IMG/VR virus record: IMGVR_UViG_3300043418_000072
Span: 231,362-295,361 of that record
From: a virus
Reading direction: 5' to 3' (one strand)
Length of the DNA stretch: 64,000 nt
Shown: piece after piece, positions 3,987 to 63,342 of the stretch
Numbering within the stretch: the first letter of the stretch is position 1
Layout: the number at the start of each line of letters is the position of its first letter
The notes under the pieces: generated by a model
Database searches by the model: none
What the model saw: the letters and a program-made list of their open reading frames with translations, nothing else
Told to the model about the DNA's origin: nothing
Program-made: the position numbers and the translations under genes

Positions 3987-5088
3987 TTACTTGAGTGATA
4001 CGGGATGCTGGCCATTCAGTCCAGTCCCGTGTCATTAACAGTTGAAAGTTATGTTCAACAATAGGCTTGATCTTGGCATAGATAACATCTTGATCTTGCT
4101 CACAAAGCCACTTAACCTGCTCAAATGCGGCAGTATAACGCTCGTTATCGTCTTTAATCAAGTCATAAGACTCGTCAATTACTCCATCAAATGTTTTGAA
4201 GCCCAATGCACGTAGATTGTGCATAAACTTGTAACCTGTAAAGGCAATAAACAGTCGACGACCAATCATTGGCTTGGCTGTCTTCTCGGTGAAGCAGCTT
4301 AGTGTGTTATCAAAGTCAGTTTCTGCAATGATACTGTATGCTGTTTCGTTGAATGTCTTGATAGGAATGATCTGACTTAGGTGTACACGTTGCCCGCAAT
4401 AGTCTGCCCAGTCGGCAGTGCCAATGGTTTGGCCAATTGGCGTTGTTCCTTCTTCCCAGATAAAATAATCCTTGGCATAGAATTCGCCTTCTTTCCAGTC
4501 GCCACCGTAAGTCATTACAACTTTGTCATTTAACTGGTTATCGTTAACTGCCTTAAACACAAAGTCTCTATGTGGCTTGGGACTGCCTAGCAAGGCATCG
4601 AAGTACTTGGGCTTGGTAGCAGAGTAGTTGATGTGCATTACTTTGTCGGGCAATGCTTTGTAAATGTTCGCAGTTGTTTTAAACCAGTCGCCCCAGCATA
4701 GGATGTGACTGTTAATGTCATCTCTGTCGTTTACTGCACCGGGTAGCATCCAGTAGACATTGTCATGATGACATTGGTCCCAAATTTGCCAATGGAAGTT
4801 GTGCAATTCGCTTTCAAAGGTGAAAACTAAATCACTAATGTAACTTAAACGGTTTATCTTATCTTCGAATCCAACGTAGGCTGTGTCAAAGTCACAGTGT
4901 AGTCGGTGTGTAGTAAATGCTATCTTAGTGTCAACTTGTGCTGCTTCATATTCGTCAATGCTGTGACAAATTGTGTATGGGCGGTTGAACTGTATTTTTG
5001 GAAGCCACTCTAAGTCAATAATCTGACTATCACTGTAAACTAGAATCATTCTTTGCTCGATAATTTTCAATTGCTGCTTTGATTGCAT
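3964..5088 (-). CDS. hypothetical protein
   Basis: 374-aa ORF on the coding-dense minus strand; its true start may lie downstream of the IscU overlap. Confidence 0.4.
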   Translation of the reverse strand: MQSKQQLKIIEQRMILVYSDSQIIDLEWLPKIQFNRPYTICHSIDEYEAAQVDTKIAFTTHRLHCDFDTAYVGFEDKINRLSYISDLVFTFESELHNFHWQIWDQCHHDNVYWMLPGAVNDRDDINSHILCWGDWFKTTANIYKALPDKVMHINYSATKPKYFDALLGSPKPHRDFVFKAVNDNQLNDKVVMTYGGDWKEGEFYAKDYFIWEEGTTPIGQTIGTADWADYCGQRVHLSQIIPIKTFNETAYSIIAETDFDNTLSCFTEKTAKPMIGRRLFIAFTGYKFMHNLRALGFKTFDGVIDESYDLIKDDNERYTAAFEQVKWLCEQDQDVIYAKIKPIVEHNFQLLMTRDWTEWPASRITQVINSTIVG

Positions 5089-5452: not shown

Positions 5453-5875
5453 TTAGCCACGGTTTCCTAGTGCCCTGTTAGCCATACTGCTAACAGTTTT
5501 CTCAGGAGCAGTTTGTGCTCCGTCTTCTGCACCAGGAGTCGATTCATCACCGAAACCGTCATCACTAAATGTAGCCAAGTAAACGTACTTAACGCCGTTT
5601 TCGTCGTCTTTAATATCTGTGATTAAGTTTTTGATTGTGTCGTTGCTCTTACGTGCAGACTCTAGTGCATCTGCGTTAAACGATTCACCACCTGGTAAAC
5701 GCTTAACTAGATTAACTAAGCTGTCAACACGTACCTTAGGGACTGAATGCCCGTGAGCACGATTACGTAATTCTTCAAGAGCTGTGGCTAAGACGCTATC
5801 TCCACGAGTTTCTGCCTCGTCTTCGATCATTGCGCCTATGCCGCTGTCTTCAACAATAATTTCTGCGAATCGCAT
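5453..5875 (-). CDS. hypothetical acidic protein
   Basis: 140-aa ORF that abuts the next gene (ATG at 5875). Confidence 0.4.
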   Translation of the reverse strand: MRFAEIIVEDSGIGAMIEDEAETRGDSVLATALEELRNRAHGHSVPKVRVDSLVNLVKRLPGGESFNADALESARKSNDTIKNLITDIKDDENGVKYVYLATFSDDGFGDESTPGAEDGAQTAPEKTVSSMANRALGNRG

Positions 5876-48957: not shown

Positions 48958-49032
48958 TGGTTGCAAAGGCCGGAATCGAACCAACTGTCTCCAGGTTATG
49001 AGCCTGGTGAGATACCATTTCTCTACTCTGCT
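48958..49032 (-). tRNA. tRNA-Met or tRNA-Ile2 (anticodon CAT)
   Basis: Anticodon stem CCAGG/CCTGG with loop CTCATAA, D stem GAGA/TCTC, T-loop TTCGATT, CCA encoded; the 1:72 pair is mismatched, which is initiator-like. Confidence 0.6.
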
Positions 49033-49039
49033 TCAATAT

Positions 49040-49606
49040 TTATACCAGTTGCTCTGCTTGTAGCAAAGAAACTGTGTCTGCATCCAACTCAATTGATGTC
49101 TGAACATTGAGTTCCAACACCCGATCGTTGATGCTTTGTTTTTGTTTCTTCAGGTCACGCATTTCTGCTTTGTAACCTTCAATCTGGCCTGCTTCAAGCA
49201 CGCCAGTATCAACTGTGTCGTTGTAACCGTAAATGCGGCTATTTTTGTCCTGTGTACGAAGCTTCTCTAGCTTGCCTTCAATGACTTCTGTAGCTTCAAC
49301 TACCTTGCTTTCAGTTAGGCCTTTCAAGAAGCCCAGACGCTTGTCAATGAATGCTGCGTCTGTCAGCAAGTCTGCAACACCAGCTTCTGTGTTGGCGCGA
49401 CCAACCTTTGCACGGATGCCGTACAATGCTCGAGTCAACTGTGTGCGCTTGGCATCATTGCGGACCAGTGCGTCACGTGCTGTAGTCAGCACCGAAGTGG
49501 TGCTTTGGAACTCGTTAAGGGAAACTGTCAATGCGATGTCGATCGTCTTGATGTGTTCCTGGATTGTGTTTTGTAGGGCGTTTGCTTTGCGAAGTGTAAA
49601 TTTCAT
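49040..49606 (-). CDS. hypothetical coiled-coil protein
   Basis: 188-aa ORF. Confidence 0.4.
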   Translation of the reverse strand: MKFTLRKANALQNTIQEHIKTIDIALTVSLNEFQSTTSVLTTARDALVRNDAKRTQLTRALYGIRAKVGRANTEAGVADLLTDAAFIDKRLGFLKGLTESKVVEATEVIEGKLEKLRTQDKNSRIYGYNDTVDTGVLEAGQIEGYKAEMRDLKKQKQSINDRVLELNVQTSIELDADTVSLLQAEQLV

Positions 49607-50408
49607 AATCGAGTTCCTTTCTGTTTGAATTTAATAGGGGGGTAACGTATGGCAAGTCAATTGCGGGACAATGTGCAATGTACATTAGATAGAGTCGATT
49701 TTCAAGGCAACCTTTTTCTAAAGCAAAATACAACAAGCAGAGGATACCAATATTGCCGAGCATCAATAAACAAGCAACTTAATGCCATTTCATCTCGGAG
49801 CACTGGATCACGATTGTATATTCCAGTAAGCGTTTCAAGTGCTAACTAGATGTGCAATCTCTCATCTCCACACGCTACAGCTAGTTTTGAGAAACTAGCA
49901 AAAATGGAGGACGGTGTAGGAGTTTAACCTACCTTATACCGAGTTTGCAATCCGGCGCATAAACGCTCTGCCAACCGTCCATAAATCTTATATGTAAACA
50001 CACTAACACGGCTACCACACCTTACGATGCCCTGTGACCGCACTCCAGGTTAGATAATGTGTTTGCATATAAGTGGAGGACTGAGAATACATCTCTCCCA
50101 ACAACACCTCGGACATTATTACGATCCTTGCGAGACCGCTTTCTTCCGACTTCCACTAAACCCTACTTGCATAGTAGTCTAGTCTGCTGTCAGCATCGCC
50201 GTTTTTAAAGACAGGCAGTAGTCTTGTCGCCATATGCTATTCTACGCTTTCTATCCCGTTGACCTTTAGAGCCATTCACCACCGCTAAGTAGCTACGAAA
50301 CTTCCTGCATAAACAGATTTCACCTTGCGAGTTACGTCTGACTTAGTTAGCTTGCGCCCTAAGTATTAGATGCTTTTCACATATGACCGAGTCAGTCTTT
50401 GCGTTTTG

Positions 50409-50480
50409 TAATGATAGCGGGAATTGAACCCGCCGCATTCTGTTTAAGAGACAGACGTTCTACCAATGAACTATATCAAC
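50409..50480 (-). tRNA. tRNA-Lys (CTT)
   Basis: D stem GTTC/GAAC, anticodon stem TCTGT/ACAGA with loop CTCTTAA, T-arm GCGGG-TTCAATT-CCCGC; one T:T mismatch in the acceptor stem. Confidence 0.5.
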
Positions 50481-50989
50481 CTACTGCGATGTGCTGACTC
50501 AGTTGCTGCATACTCTTTTGGAATACACAATACAACACACCACGTACCTTTTGCCTTGCGAGCTACTCAGTCGTCTTTTGCGACCAATGTTCGTATTACT
50601 ACGTCCACCAACCACTAAAACTGCATACGAGCTCTTAGGTGCAACCCTTCGAACCAATACACTACCCTTTCTCATACCAATTAACAAAGTTGGTTTCGCA
50701 TAGAAGTCAGCACCACCTGTTACTTTCCATCTACTCAAGTTCCCCTTGATGCAATCTCAGGCTTGTAAGCAAACGTTCTTCCCTATGCACTTTGCGTCAC
50801 TGTTACAACCACCCGTCGCTGAGTGATCGCTCCCTCACAGGAGTGAGCAGGCTTGTCTAAACGAACTATTGCTAGCGGAGTTATGTAGGCATACCTCCTT
50901 TGGCTGTGTCACCACAGTTATTCTTCGCATCAAGCTGGGCGAACCATACTCTTTGCAGGACATTAAACTGCCCCAAATTCTTATACAAC

Positions 50990-51065
50990 TGCACACTCAC
51001 AGGATTCGAACCTGCGACCCGGGCAATAGCCCGAGCTATGATCCAACCATATCAGCGTGGCCTAC
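50990..51065 (-). tRNA. tRNA-like element with canonical T-arm (cloverleaf not resolved by hand)
   Basis: GCAGG-TTCGAAT-CCTGT T-arm on the minus strand, but no complementary acceptor stem was found. Confidence 0.25.
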
Positions 51066-51151
51066 GCCTTTATGTGCATGTGTATAAGAACTTCTTATAC
51101 GTATCTATTTTAAAGAACTTGCTTGTTAGCACTATCACTAACTAAGCTGCT

Positions 51152-51180
51152 ATTGTAGCAAACTTTTCATTTGCTGTCAA
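51152..51180 (-). promoter_or_regulatory. sigma70 promoter TTGACA-17-TACAAT inside non-coding stretch
   Basis: Minus strand: TTGACAGCAAATGAAAAGTTTGCTACAAT. Confidence 0.6.
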
Positions 51181-51516
51181 CAGTTATTTAGAAATTTATT
51201 TTGATGCCTCTTTCGCCTGCTTACAAGGCTACGGGTAAGACTTGCGTCTTTTGGTTGACCCTCATGCAACCAGCGGAGCGTTACTCTACTTTATTGCAAT
51301 CCTTCTTCCTGCGTATTGCTACGTGGAATAGATCGTTTCTAACTCATAGGTGTTAGACGCCACTGTAGTCTCTTACAAACTACACAAGAGTGCCCAGCTT
51401 TCTTTCTGGACCAAATTTTCAACAAGACTCACGCAACCTAATAGCGTGGTAGGCCTGTTTACTTTACATCAAAACAAATTTTTAAAGAACGTTTGTTAAT
51501 TGCTTAACATGTATCT

Positions 51517-51545
51517 ATTATAACAAGAGTTTCATTAAGTGTCAA
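51517..51545 (-). promoter_or_regulatory. Consensus sigma70 promoter TTGACA-17-TATAAT firing into ORF-free region
   Basis: Minus strand: TTGACACTTAATGAAACTCTTGTTATAAT followed by the conserved AGATACAT motif. Confidence 0.7.
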
Positions 51546-51574
51546 GTACTTTTAGAAAAACTTAAAATAATAAA

Positions 51575-51658
51575 TGGTGCGTAAGGAGAGACTCGAACTC
51601 TCAATCCTCGCGGCGCTGGCTTCTAAGACCAGAGTGTATACCATTCCACCACTTACGC
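51575..51658 (-). tRNA. tRNA-Leu (TAG), long variable arm
   Basis: Acceptor GCGTAAG/CTTACGC, anticodon stem CTGGT/GCCAG with loop CTTAGAA, 13-nt variable arm, T-arm GAGAG-TTCGAGT-CTCTC, CCA encoded. Confidence 0.65.
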
Positions 51659-51669
51659 ATTGTGATAAA

Positions 51670-52845
51670 TTACTTATCATCTAAGCTGTTATTATAAACA
51701 AATTTGACTTGCTTGTCAACTATGTGTTTATCCATAATAGCTTCAAAATCTTTTGGGTCTTGTGCTTTTGGGGCACAGTAACCGCATATACATCTTGTTC
51801 TAGCACATTGTATAACAGGCATGGCTTTGTTGTCAATGTTTTTCTGCACTTGTTCTAGTATAAGATTACCATTTGACAAATTACCAATTGGACCAACTGT
51901 GCCGTTAAAGCGCATACGGCAATCCTTGTTTGTGTACACATCGCCATTGATCTGTTTAATGTACAAGAAGTACCAATTAACACTACAACTCCATCCCATG
52001 AAATCTGCATGTGGCACAAAGGCTGTTGGGTGTTGTAAGTCTTGGTTAGTGCATAGCTTTCGACCACCACAACAACCACGACCTACCTTACCCATGCCAA
52101 CTGTGTCTGTTGACACTGCATCTAATGCCTTTGTTAGCGCATCTCTACTCTTAGCAGGGGTACGCGACTTGTAGTAATCTTGAAAGTAAATAAACTGTTC
52201 TTTGTTATATTGCCACTGTGGTGTAGGAGTGTCGTTTGCTTTAACTACATAGTCAACACTGTGTGTCTTGCAAAACTCGATAGCTTGTTGGCTAATATCC
52301 CACAAAACAGGATCGTTGTGCATCACAAACACCACCTTTTGGCGCCTGCCGATGGCCTTATTATAAAGTATGTTGTCTAGTACTTGCTGTCTCTGTTTAG
52401 GCAATGCACTGCTGTGAAAACTAACTGTAAACTCATCAATTAAGTTTGCAACCTTTTCCCAAAGATTCTTGCCAGCCACTGCATTACTTGTGCATGTAAC
52501 AGTTAATGGCCATTCGTATGTGTGTCTTGCACGAACCTGTTCAAGGATCTCAACAATGTCTGGATGAAAGATGCTTTCGCCGCCGTAGACATTAAGAACA
52601 ACCATGCGCTGCCATTTAGGCTTTAGCTGCATGTACTTGTCTGCATAAGCAAACATGAAGTCAATGGTCTTTAAGCATTCGTCTTTAGGAGGATGCGCTG
52701 TGCTATTGTCGTGGCCACCATACTCAATGCCAGTTGAGCAGTAGTCGCAATCCAAATTGCACTTCATTGTCAATTCCCAGTCCAACAAAAATGTGGGACG
52801 GTTAACTGGATCGATTGCAGGCTCAATTGAGATAATTTTATTCAT
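51670..52845 (-). CDS. Radical SAM enzyme with C-terminal Cys-rich (SPASM/twitch-like) region
   Basis: 391 aa; CNLDCDYC is the CxxxCxxC radical-SAM cluster motif, and there are about 10 further Cys in the C-terminal half (CCGGRKLC, CICGYC). Confidence 0.7.
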   Translation of the reverse strand: MNKIISIEPAIDPVNRPTFLLDWELTMKCNLDCDYCSTGIEYGGHDNSTAHPPKDECLKTIDFMFAYADKYMQLKPKWQRMVVLNVYGGESIFHPDIVEILEQVRARHTYEWPLTVTCTSNAVAGKNLWEKVANLIDEFTVSFHSSALPKQRQQVLDNILYNKAIGRRQKVVFVMHNDPVLWDISQQAIEFCKTHSVDYVVKANDTPTPQWQYNKEQFIYFQDYYKSRTPAKSRDALTKALDAVSTDTVGMGKVGRGCCGGRKLCTNQDLQHPTAFVPHADFMGWSCSVNWYFLYIKQINGDVYTNKDCRMRFNGTVGPIGNLSNGNLILEQVQKNIDNKAMPVIQCARTRCICGYCAPKAQDPKDFEAIMDKHIVDKQVKFVYNNSLDDK

Positions 52846-61340: not shown

Positions 61341-61879
61341 AAATTTAAATGGCATTGTGGGTTCCTACCACACCTGAACCTTGTTCCACCGCTCGTTCAA
61401 AGACTTATGTGGCGATCCCGTGCATTCGCATTACACCATACCATATAGAAGCACTCTCAAATGCAGGCATAGGAGGAGTCAAGCTCTGAAACTTTCGCAT
61501 CTGCAGATACTAGGCTTCTTCTCCCGCTTTGACTTATGCCAAGAATACTTCTATATAGGCTCCACCGTTAACGACAGCATTCGTCCTGGCTTTATTTTAT
61601 GTCGGTTAATGCACGGTGGACACACATGCCGACGGGGTTACAGTTTCAATGATGGGATTCGAACCCACTAACTACCCGTGCGCTGCGGGTTGTGCTACGC
61701 TCAATATAAAACTGGTTTACTCTGTTTCGAACCAGACCAACAGTATATCTTTGCACTATCTTTCCATGTCGTCTTCATTGTTACCATATAGAAACACACT
61801 ATGTGGAATCGAACCACTGACCCTTTCACTCCGTAGAGACCGTGCAATACGCTTAGTCGCCGACTAGTATGTTTTTATA

Positions 61880-62243: not shown

Positions 62244-62345
62244 ATGGATTCGTAAATTACTTTTCTTTTACGTGCCATCCAGGACCATACGGGGGTCTAG
62301 GATGACACTATCGTTTACCTGAACGTTTCATGACATTTTTCCTTT

Positions 62346-62735
62346 TTAATTCCAAAGTAAGTCAAAGTTGCCAGCTAACACTTTCTTAACGCTTGCAGTC
62401 TTGTCACTTACGTGATCTTTAACTGTATCGTCTTGAAAGCGGTATGTGCGAATTTTGTCTCCTCGCATCCCTGAACCAACTTGTTGCTTTCTGTTGCTTG
62501 CTAAGTTGTTATTATAACAGTCTTTTGTTATCTTGTCAACTCTTTCTCTAATAGTTTGCATGGCTTCTGCCAAACTATTTTCCCTACTGCGGCACTGTGC
62601 TGTTACTACTGTGCCGCTAGGTACGTGCGTAACACGGGCACTGTTTTGGTGCTTGTTACGGTGTTGTCCTCCTGCGCCTGTTCCGCTGTACCATTCAATC
62701 TTCAGATCTGAGTCAAGAATAGCAGTGGTCGGCAC
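62346..62735 (-). CDS. GGQ-motif peptide-chain-release-factor-like protein (ArfB/PrfH-like peptidyl-tRNA hydrolase domain)
   Basis: 129 aa; YSGTGAGGQHRNKHQNSARVTHVPSGTVV contains the universal GGQ motif in RF domain-3 context; the C-terminus GSGMRGDKIRTYRFQDDTVKDH parallels the RF1/RF2 RSEKIRTYNFPQxRVTDHR segment. Confidence 0.75.
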   Translation of the reverse strand: MPTTAILDSDLKIEWYSGTGAGGQHRNKHQNSARVTHVPSGTVVTAQCRSRENSLAEAMQTIRERVDKITKDCYNNNLASNRKQQVGSGMRGDKIRTYRFQDDTVKDHVSDKTASVKKVLAGNFDLLWN

Positions 62736-63000
62736 ACTTGGATCAACGACAGCGACAGTAACGGTACTAGTATGTACTCGTCCTTTTCGCTCAGTTGGTG
62801 GTACACGCTGTATTCGGTGTCCACCTGGCTCGTTGTATAAGCCAGATAAATCAGCACCCTCGACTAAGATATGAACTTCGCCAAGATACTCATTTATCAG
62901 GCGGCTAGTTCAGCCCTTGCTGTGTGCAAATTTAATGTAGGCTTGCGCCAAGTCTTTTACAAATAGTTTACTGTCTTCGCCACCTTCTGCGGCACGGACT

Positions 63001-63342
63001 TCAATTACACGTTTCATATTCATTTTTCTCTTTTAATCGCATAGCTTCTAATCTTGCTTTCAAGAATAGTTCAACTACATCTTTATTTAACTTAGTAAAT
63101 CCTGTCTTGATTAGAAAGAACAATTCGTCTTTTTCTGACTCAAGCCATACCACGTGAGCATCACCTGTATTGCCCACTGCCCCAAGTCCTTCGGGGTTGC
63201 TGAATCTCTGTGCCGCGTTACAAATGAACGCAAACTTTACCCCAAAGTCCCTTGATAGTACTTCTGGACCAGTGGCCTCACCTTGGGCAATCCGGTACAC
63301 ATAGTTGTACTCGTACGGAACGTCAACGTAGACTTTGTGCAT
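63001..63342 (-). CDS. hypothetical protein
   Basis: 113 aa; stop/start overlap with the upstream phosphatase gene. Confidence 0.4.
   Translation of the reverse strand: MHKVYVDVPYEYNYVYRIAQGEATGPEVLSRDFGVKFAFICNAAQRFSNPEGLGAVGNTGDAHVVWLESEKDELFFLIKTGFTKLNKDVVELFLKARLEAMRLKEKNEYETCN

Follow-up and report, generated by a model that had tools for sequence, protein, structure and literature searches.

A gene-poor interval of an uncultured jumbo phage as a probable operon of structured RNAs around GOLLD

What does a phage encode in a stretch of about 2 kb that holds no credible protein gene? The question is raised by positions 49607-51570 of a 64,000-nucleotide (nt) stretch of viral DNA (IMG/VR record IMGVR_UViG_3300043418_000072, positions 231,362 to 295,361), which we call the window. 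Coordinates are window positions, and all features of the interval are read on the minus strand, written (-). An earlier reading of the DNA letters, referred to here as the original prediction, had noted only short open reading frames (ORFs) in the interval and had offered structured non-coding RNA, an intron or a decayed array of transfer RNA (tRNA) genes as explanations. We found that the ORFs overlapping the interval are all 83 amino acids (aa) or shorter and that none is conserved as coding in relatives, in agreement with the gene-poor claim. The Rfam scan returned the GOLLD RNA (RF02032) above its gathering score, and covariation across homologous phages supports structured RNA in the interval. 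The first of the proposed explanations was right: the interval contains GOLLD RNA and at least three further structured RNA modules. The two GC-rich segments that had looked structured, 50770-50860 and 49900-50060, proved to lie inside the GOLLD 5' domain and to consist of tRNA-Cys plus a stem-closed cassette, respectively.

It is highly probable, in our view, that an uncultured jumbo phage of ~320 kb has here an operon of non-coding RNAs, in which structured RNA genes fill the interval end to end. The operon would begin with promoter P1, a leader carrying a hairpin and a boxA-like motif, and an unclassified structured RNA of ~300 nt, the P1-P2 RNA. Promoter P2 would follow, again with a hairpin and a boxA-like motif in its leader, then a tRNA-like element carried by a long stem, and after it the GOLLD RNA with tRNA-Lys(CTT) in its internal linker. 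A small stem-closed cassette, tRNA-Cys and a structured tail of ~260 nt reaching the next gene would complete the series.

GOLLD RNA and its linker tRNA

The GOLLD RNA of the window is made up of the following features.

50078-50543 (-): GOLLD 3' domain (Rfam RF02032), scoring 196.1 bits (gathering score 150; E = 9e-54)
50544-50974 (-): GOLLD 5' domain, 431 nt, contiguous with the Rfam match and outside the Rfam model
50409-50480 (-): tRNA-Lys(CTT), called by ARAGORN (50408-50480) and by the Rfam tRNA model (64.1 bits), in the unpaired linker of the GOLLD model

GOLLD reportedly goes back to Weinberg et al. 2009, and cryo-electron microscopy (cryo-EM) structures of the env-38 and S. agalactiae GOLLD RNAs are said to date from 2025. 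Members of the family are described as exceeding 800 nt and residing in phages and prophages, close to islands of tRNA genes, with separate 5' and 3' domains; they assemble into nanocages of 10 to 14 subunits with unknown function, and their linker is disordered, faces the cage interior and in some cases contains a tRNA (PMC12286853, PMC12990946, PMC6582537). For the env-38 and S. agalactiae RNAs, a closed homo-oligomeric cage held by kissing loops and A-minor contacts is known (PMC12286853, PMC12990946).

In the gathering-threshold Rfam scan of the whole window, the match spans model positions 1-416 of 416 and is not truncated. The same model scores 174-213 bits in ten related environmental loci and 169 and 187 bits in two cultured phages. 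The 5' domain is conserved in every relative, with 119 consensus pairs and 97.8% of alignment cells paired, and seven sequences contain 41 compensatory pairs, compared with 16.8 ± 2.6 in shuffles (0 of 500 reach it) and 1-8 in slid controls. Its 5' boundary is fixed by one relative, L094, since the promoter there abuts the first helix (...TACAAT-AGATACTTA-GGGCAG). In total, the RNA at 50974-50078 measures 897 nt including the 72-nt tRNA. Every sequence-level test of family membership gave a positive result, namely a covariance-model score above gathering, a large 5' domain that brings the whole RNA past the ~700-850 nt expected of the family, a location in a phage and a tRNA array, and a tRNA in the linker; we therefore regard this RNA as a new member of a known family. 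The segment 50974-50078 is GOLLD RNA, and its 431-nt part is the family's variable 5' domain.

Megablast found no near-identical phage in GenBank, only distant matches to the GOLLD core. With blastn, Caulobacter phages of the phiCbK type and Sinorhizobium phage Phosso gave distant matches over the GOLLD core and tRNA-Lys. The flanking proteins recovered many uncultured relatives, the closest being a viral contig of 320,767 base pairs (bp). We mapped the unit in six distinct relatives by blastn and nhmmer and reached four more GOLLD loci through the 188-aa protein encoded next to it; loci are cited by number where they need to be told apart. Permuted (two-piece, alphaproteobacterial-type) transfer-messenger RNA (tmRNA) genes lie near GOLLD in L059 (7437-7948) and in Caulobacter phage Magneto (L069, 3131-3571), which hints at Alphaproteobacteria as the host clade. 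Near the tRNA/GOLLD region, relatives also encode small Rpb6/omega-like proteins and a protein weakly resembling the RNA polymerase (RNAP)-binding domain of SutA (L091 9839-10069, L093 273-500, L095 11-256), release-factor-like proteins (RF-1 genes in L090, L094 and L095) and a T4 Rnl1-type RNA ligase (L091 8037-8939). A tblastn search of the window with six small proteins of these loci, the omega-like and SutA-like ones among them, gave no homologue.

ARAGORN called 16 tRNAs in the window, four of them in or beside the interval. The original prediction had recognised only one or two tRNAs there; the tRNA-Lys among them was confirmed by both programs, while the first of the following two genes had been overlooked.

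49905-49980 (-): tRNA-Cys(GCA), ARAGORN and Rfam tRNA (43.1 bits)
51575-51658 (-): tRNA-Leu, ARAGORN, adjoining the interval

The tRNA in the linker varies among relatives. It is Lys-CTT in the window, L057, L054, L056, L090 (2211-2282) and Magneto (L069 2515-2588), Asn-GTT in L058 (4841-4915), L091 (4062-4135) and L095 (4135-4206), Lys-TTT in L059 (5205-5277) and Arg-TCT in L061 (4814-4885); ARAGORN called no tRNA in the linker slot of L094, L082 and Phosso. Where the anticodon differs, the linker tRNA is 57-70% identical to that of the window, while the 63 GOLLD nt just 5' of it stay 84-100% identical. This fall in tRNA identity beside conserved GOLLD sequence points to cassette-like exchange rather than point mutation of the anticodon. 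Nearly every locus examined, 12 in all, has tRNA-Cys(GCA) immediately downstream of GOLLD, among them L090 (2706-2783) and the distantly related Magneto (L069 1847-1935). It has been reported that a GOLLD-containing mycobacterial tRNA cluster also has an extra tRNA-Cys (PMC6582537). In L061 only, an ORF of ~60 codons (MHPIDQKLKEL..., about 5518-5710) lies between tRNA-Cys and the tail.

Leaders with a hairpin and a boxA-like motif

The two strong sigma70 promoters that had been read on the minus strand of the interval reappear as near-consensus predicted promoters whose position is conserved across relatives. Each is followed by a predicted leader hairpin and by the same 11-nt motif, GTTCTTTAAAA.

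51517-51545 (-): promoter P1, TTGACA-17-TATAAT, 12/12, TG-extended -10, predicted start near 51510
51494-51509 (-): leader hairpin 1 (boxB-like), UGUUAA-GCAA-UUAACA, predicted fold, invariant within the P1 unit
51480-51490 (-): boxA-like motif 1, GTTCTTTAAAA, 26 nt past the -10 box, exact consensus match
51152-51180 (-): promoter P2, TTGACA-17-TACAAT, 11/12, TG-extended -10, predicted start near 51145
51121-51147 (-): leader hairpin 2 (boxB-like), GCUU.GUUAGU...GCUAACAAGC, predicted fold
51108-51118 (-): boxA-like motif 2, GTTCTTTAAAA, 33 nt past the -10 box, invariant in 7/7 aligned loci

By number alone, consensus matches to sigma70 promoters show no enrichment here (42 in the region, compared with 38.7 ± 6.4 in shuffles); the weight of P1 and P2 therefore lies in their positional conservation. 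The hexamers of P1 are kept in eight relatives, in which the spacer and upstream DNA drop to 47-55% identity, and those of P2 are invariant in 7/7 aligned GOLLD loci. Two more perfect 12/12 sigma70 promoters stand ahead of tRNA genes at 51691-51719 (-) and 62511-62539 (-); neither is followed by a boxA motif, and one of them sits within the 3' end of a radical-SAM ORF (51670-52845).

The motif GTTCTTTAAAA fits exactly the boxA consensus GYTCTTTAANA, which Baniulyte et al. derived from the E. coli rrn and suhB sites (PMC5725501); this consensus is gamma-proteobacterial. The window contains only two exact copies, at 51490-51480 and 51118-51108. When the window and 11 loci (182 kb) were scanned with GYTCTTTRANA, we obtained 21 sites, and in 20 of them the strand that encodes the RNA carries the motif in its exact form; 19 or, by another tally, all 20 lie 25-39 nt past a -10 box, the widest range given being 4-39 nt. 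The promoters before these 20 motifs score 10-12/12 (one 8/12), and a covarying hairpin lies between promoter and motif. The remaining site, at window position 1539 (+), stands outside such a promoter-hairpin context. Hairpin 2 covaries across loci (GTTAG/CTAAC, CTAA/TTAG, CAGTTA/TAACTG); between units the leader hairpins differ in sequence and keep their pairing, with GTTAA/TTAAC and GCAGC/GCTGC in addition to these three. Some instances of the motif head non-orthologous tRNA sub-arrays (L059 1593, L087 10750, L085 777), the promoter-hairpin-motif module recurs in the more divergent loci L090, L091 and L095, and L082 carries the variant GTTCTTTAACT. In L091, only 4 nt separate the -10 box from the motif, and the hairpin follows the motif, as in lambda nut. 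By our tally, the module is present in 11 of 12 distinct GOLLD loci of the clade.

In E. coli rrn leaders, a boxB-like hairpin is followed by boxA and then by boxC, which supplies the 5' strand of the RNase III duplex around the precursor of 16S ribosomal RNA (rRNA); in the 'delivery' model, the Nus complex is proposed to hold the rrn leader near the RNA exit, and distal 3' segments then pair with it (PMC6614801). It has also been reported that boxA shields long untranslated CRISPR transcripts from Rho (PMC7665894). In the present leaders, each boxA runs straight into the 5' strand of a closing stem that pairs over a long range, and the ~1.9 kb past boxA contain no ORF. If GTTCTTTAAAA acts as a boxA, it would recruit the host NusB/NusE, and RNAP would become resistant to Rho across the ~1.9 kb of untranslated RNA. 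The leader would stay near the exit channel so that the long-range stems can close, as in rRNA operons. More speculatively, the closing stems of 16-22 bp would serve as RNase III sites that free the individual RNAs.

On balance, we lean towards Nus-dependent antitermination and assisted folding, because the 5' stem strand follows each boxA and ~1.9 kb without an ORF or intrinsic terminator come after it; no intrinsic terminator was found from P1 to the gene at 49606. Processing by RNase III at the closing stems is the more speculative part, and we hold it to be possible at somewhat less than even chance.

Several points weigh against this picture. The promoters and boxA rest on sequence and its conservation, and the matched consensus is gamma-proteobacterial while the tmRNA type of the relatives and the distant GOLLD relatives point to Alphaproteobacteria. 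L094 reads GOLLD from the abutting promoter, without a boxA, and no boxA motif was found near GOLLD in Caulobacter phage Magneto and Sinorhizobium phage Phosso. Since the leader copies are partly paralogous or orthologous, the 20 instances do not amount to 20 independent events. Rho would already be disfavoured because the RNA strand is G-rich, C-poor and highly structured (GC skew on the + strand, -0.17). The closing stems give little covariation evidence because they are nearly invariant; their role could instead be to bind proteins or to act at the level of DNA. The P1-P2 RNA shows only 7-9 compensatory pairs, and we found no link of GOLLD to Rho or boxA in the GOLLD literature searched.

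The alternative that survives best is that GTTCTTTAAAA with its hairpin is not a Nus site but a phage-specific signal, such as a site for a phage regulator or RNAP modifier, an A/U-rich single-stranded signal for processing by RNase E or RNase P, or a conserved piece of a duplicated promoter module. The leader modules do resemble duplicated copies of one unit, and a phage-specific signal would also agree with the small RNAP-related proteins of the relatives, with the absence of the motif from the GOLLD loci of L094, Magneto and Phosso, and with its closeness to the -10 box in L091. Nevertheless, the 11-mer exactly fits a published and experimentally grounded consensus (PMC5725501), and the succession of hairpin, motif and 5' strand of a long-range stem is that of the rrn leader. 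Moreover, the motif is invariant while the surrounding hairpin and spacer change, and the long RNA past it is untranslated. We therefore consider the phage-specific signal rather unlikely and retain the boxA reading of the leaders as the preferred one.

Structured modules around GOLLD

Four further modules of the interval are closed by stems of their own.

51187-51486 (-): P1-P2 RNA, a multi-helix junction with a 16-21 bp A/U-rich closing stem and several GNRA loops; its leader starts near 51510
50975-51092 (-): tRNA-like element, with stems of 11 bp and 7 bp on either side of a 2x2 internal loop, and a multibranch core that has a T-arm (GCAGGUUCGAAUCCUGU) as its last arm
49987-50073 (-): small cassette, with the 16-bp closing stem CUUAUAUGCAAACACA / UGUGUUUACAUAUAAG
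49641-49904 (-): structured 3' tail, or leader of the 188-aa gene, with a ~22-bp long-range closing stem

The P1-P2 RNA has a minimum free energy (MFE) of -94.6 kcal/mol and a folding z of -4.67. In an alignment of five sequences, 98% of the cells are paired and 7 compensatory pairs were counted, compared with 2.3 ± 1.2 in shuffles and 0-2 in slid controls; with eight sequences the count is 9, and a hairpin is expanded by 11 nt in L085 and L087. The RNA is 87-95% identical in eight contigs, whereas the DNA just upstream is 47-55% identical and the GOLLD 5' domain goes down to 70%. In all eight contigs it has its own promoter and leader, and a further promoter always comes directly after it. 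It lies 4.8 kb from GOLLD in L082, and in L087 it sits inside an array of 26 tRNAs with no GOLLD within the 14.8-kb locus.

A metagenome scan for the P1-P2 RNA added three true copies (L082, L085 and L087) besides 14 chance matches. Scans of viral contigs with an 18-mer and with a structure-aware pattern gave the same contigs only, the 18-mer also producing a chance match in L064. A pattern scan of 185,579 species genomes, checked with nhmmer, gave chance matches only, and the nhmmer profile found no further copies in ~0.9 Mb of locus sequence. In Rfam 15, nothing credible was found for the P1-P2 RNA and the tRNA-like element at E<=10 (50980-51520).

The tRNA-like element corresponds to what had been seen as an isolated T-arm at about 50990-51065, and it is real: ARAGORN forces an 88-nt 'tRNA-Pro' onto 50991-51078 (a 'tRNA-Leu' in L059), and the element is conserved as a structured unit. 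It fails as a tRNA in the Rfam search, in which 50991-51078 had no match to the tRNA model (RF00005) at E<=1 and the best score was 18.4 bits to tRNA-Sec, and its predicted 'anticodon' hairpin would have a loop of 3 nt. The folding z is -4.94. We observed the chassis in 7/7 loci folded, and the flanking stem and T-arm-like sequence are visible by eye in L082; the inner hairpins covary across loci and fall into two interior types. Two copies of GUAUAAGAA and one complementary UUCUUAUAC (window 51093-51075, 51085-51077 and 50987-50979) are invariant in all loci, and the middle strand of this set can pair either locally, as a palindromic hairpin, or with the distal copy, as the long closing stem. 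The set might act as a switch between these pairings or be bound by a protein.

Between the tRNA-like element and GOLLD, L054 (about 4253-4412) and L056 (about 4201-4359) carry mutually unrelated insertions of ~160 nt at the same site. The site seems to accept stem-closed RNA cassettes, as each insert is closed by its own stem of 14-18 bp. On the other side of GOLLD, the small cassette has an MFE of -29.7 kcal/mol (z = -2.9 relative to mononucleotide shuffles), and in most relatives both of its stem strands persist, although the inserts between them vary, being longer and unrelated.

The tail contains 77 pairs, with 97.2% paired and 17 compensatory pairs, compared with 6.9 ± 1.7 in shuffles and 1-4 in slid controls. 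The small ORFs within it are not conserved, and the scan of 49000-52000 gave no Rfam match for it at E<=1. In the loci examined, it precedes the gene of the 188-aa protein (window 49040-49606 (-)). We found 932 homologues of this protein, almost all of exactly 188 aa, on phage contigs of up to 374 kb, and no Pfam or PHROG match. The idea of a GOLLD-linked protein was rejected, as the genes that follow GOLLD and its tRNA(s) in the window phage, Magneto and Phosso are not homologous (E = 50 or no alignment; different or no PHROGs).

Could the P1-P2 RNA, the tRNA-like element and the tail be co-transcribed spacers, decayed tRNAs or mobile inverted-repeat insertions rather than independent functional RNAs? 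The tRNA-like element is clearly tRNA-derived, by its ARAGORN calls as Pro or Leu, but its inner hairpins covary, as does the tail with its 17 compensatory pairs. Each cassette is bounded by inverted repeats, and its content is swapped or expanded among relatives; covariation in the P1-P2 RNA is sparse. Set against this, the identity of the P1-P2 RNA far exceeds the ~50% of adjacent DNA and the 70% of the GOLLD 5' domain, the RNA keeps its own promoter and leader in 8/8 contigs and occurs away from GOLLD in L082 and L087, and the folding z-scores are -4.7 for this RNA and -4.9 for the tRNA-like element. We consider the spacer explanation improbable. The decayed tRNA array of the original prediction is rejected: the non-tRNA sequence is conserved, covarying and not tRNA-derived, save for the one tRNA-like element. 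For the unexplained parts, Rfam gave no match to tmRNA, RNase P, 6S, ROOL or Y RNA at E<=1 to 10.

The ORFs tested in the interval are interrupted by stops or frameshifts in homologous phages, and no conserved protein gene hidden by a frameshift of this assembly came to light there. The sole exception is an antisense ORF of 49 aa at 51350-51499 (+), open in 7/8 copies. We take it as non-coding because its substitution pattern is anti-coding (12, 6 and 2 changes at codon positions 1, 2 and 3; 17 non-synonymous versus 3 synonymous), it has no ribosome-binding site, and it is frameshifted in L082. A hidden protein gene, by frameshift or unusual start, or a self-splicing intron, which had also been proposed, is thus extremely improbable, with no covariance-model match to group I/II introns even at E<=1 to 10 and no interrupted gene.

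Elsewhere in the tRNA region of the window, 61341-61879 and 62244-63341 contain no ORF of 150 aa or more and nothing at Rfam gathering thresholds.

Meaning and comparison with known systems

Taken as a whole, the locus might be a phage-built imitation of an rRNA operon, in which host Nus antitermination and RNase III-type stems are co-opted, large RNAs are made and folded, two undescribed RNA classes are included, and exchangeable tRNA cargo is held in the GOLLD cage. We offer this larger picture tentatively, as one that has less than an even chance of being correct. If it is true, the biogenesis of GOLLD would rely on the machinery that transcribes rrn operons, and the ultra-conserved P1-P2 RNA could regulate this system or act as its partner. 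GOLLD, the main element, was already known, and it has the surroundings usual for its family; what the locus adds is a model of biogenesis and candidate RNA classes, namely the P1-P2 RNA and the tail, as candidates for new classes in phage tRNA arrays. GOLLD is among the largest non-coding RNAs of bacteria and phages and forms RNA-only nanocages, for which the locus offers a testable hypothesis of biogenesis. In addition, the different tRNAs in the inward-facing linker are natural 'cargo-swap' variants that bear on encapsulation and storage hypotheses. Before a long ORF-free stretch of a phage tRNA region is called unusual, the GOLLD and ROOL models should be run on it.

The tRNA-like element resembles the bacterial Y RNA YrlA and the mascRNA of MALAT1 in that a T-arm and an acceptor-like helix are placed on a long stem formed from flanking sequence. 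The element abuts the 5' end of a large non-coding RNA, so that cleavage by an enzyme of tRNA processing could set that end. Unlike YrlA, in which the long stem is the anticodon stem, the element has the helix order of a type-II tRNA with an extended acceptor stem, and it has no Rfam match to Y RNA or YrlA.

Stable RNAs of unknown function are present in phage tRNA clusters, such as T4 species 1 and 2 (rnaC, rnaD) and ROOL (general knowledge and PMC5737381). The P1-P2 RNA is similar to them as a conserved structured RNA of unknown function in a phage tRNA array. It differs in having no match to ROOL or any other Rfam family and in its length of ~300 nt, which lies between that of the T4 species and that of ROOL.

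The known GOLLD RNAs share with that of the window the full-length model match, the conserved 3' domain and variable structured 5' domain, the length of ~0.9 kb, the phage tRNA array and the linker tRNA. New in detail is the exchange of the linker tRNA between close relatives (Lys-CTT, Lys-TTT, Asn-GTT, Arg-TCT). The predicted promoter, hairpin-boxA leader and stem-extended tRNA-like element upstream and the stem-closed cassettes on the flanks also set this locus apart. In the GOLLD literature searched, we found no description of leaders resembling those of rrn, of stem-closed cassettes in series, of the P1-P2 RNA or of the tail.

The comparison with rrn leaders and their antitermination (boxB-boxA-boxC, NusB/E, rrnTAC) and with the boxA of CRISPR transcripts has two sides. 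Here the elements are phage-encoded and would drive GOLLD and other RNAs instead of rRNA, no boxC was identified, and L091 departs from the rrn order in following that of lambda nut, with boxA before the hairpin. On the side of likeness, a strong sigma70 promoter is followed by a hairpin, an exact boxA 11-mer and the 5' strand of a long-range duplex; as in rrn operons, the transcript would be long and untranslated and would enclose a large structured RNA, with tRNAs within and after it as in the rrn spacers.

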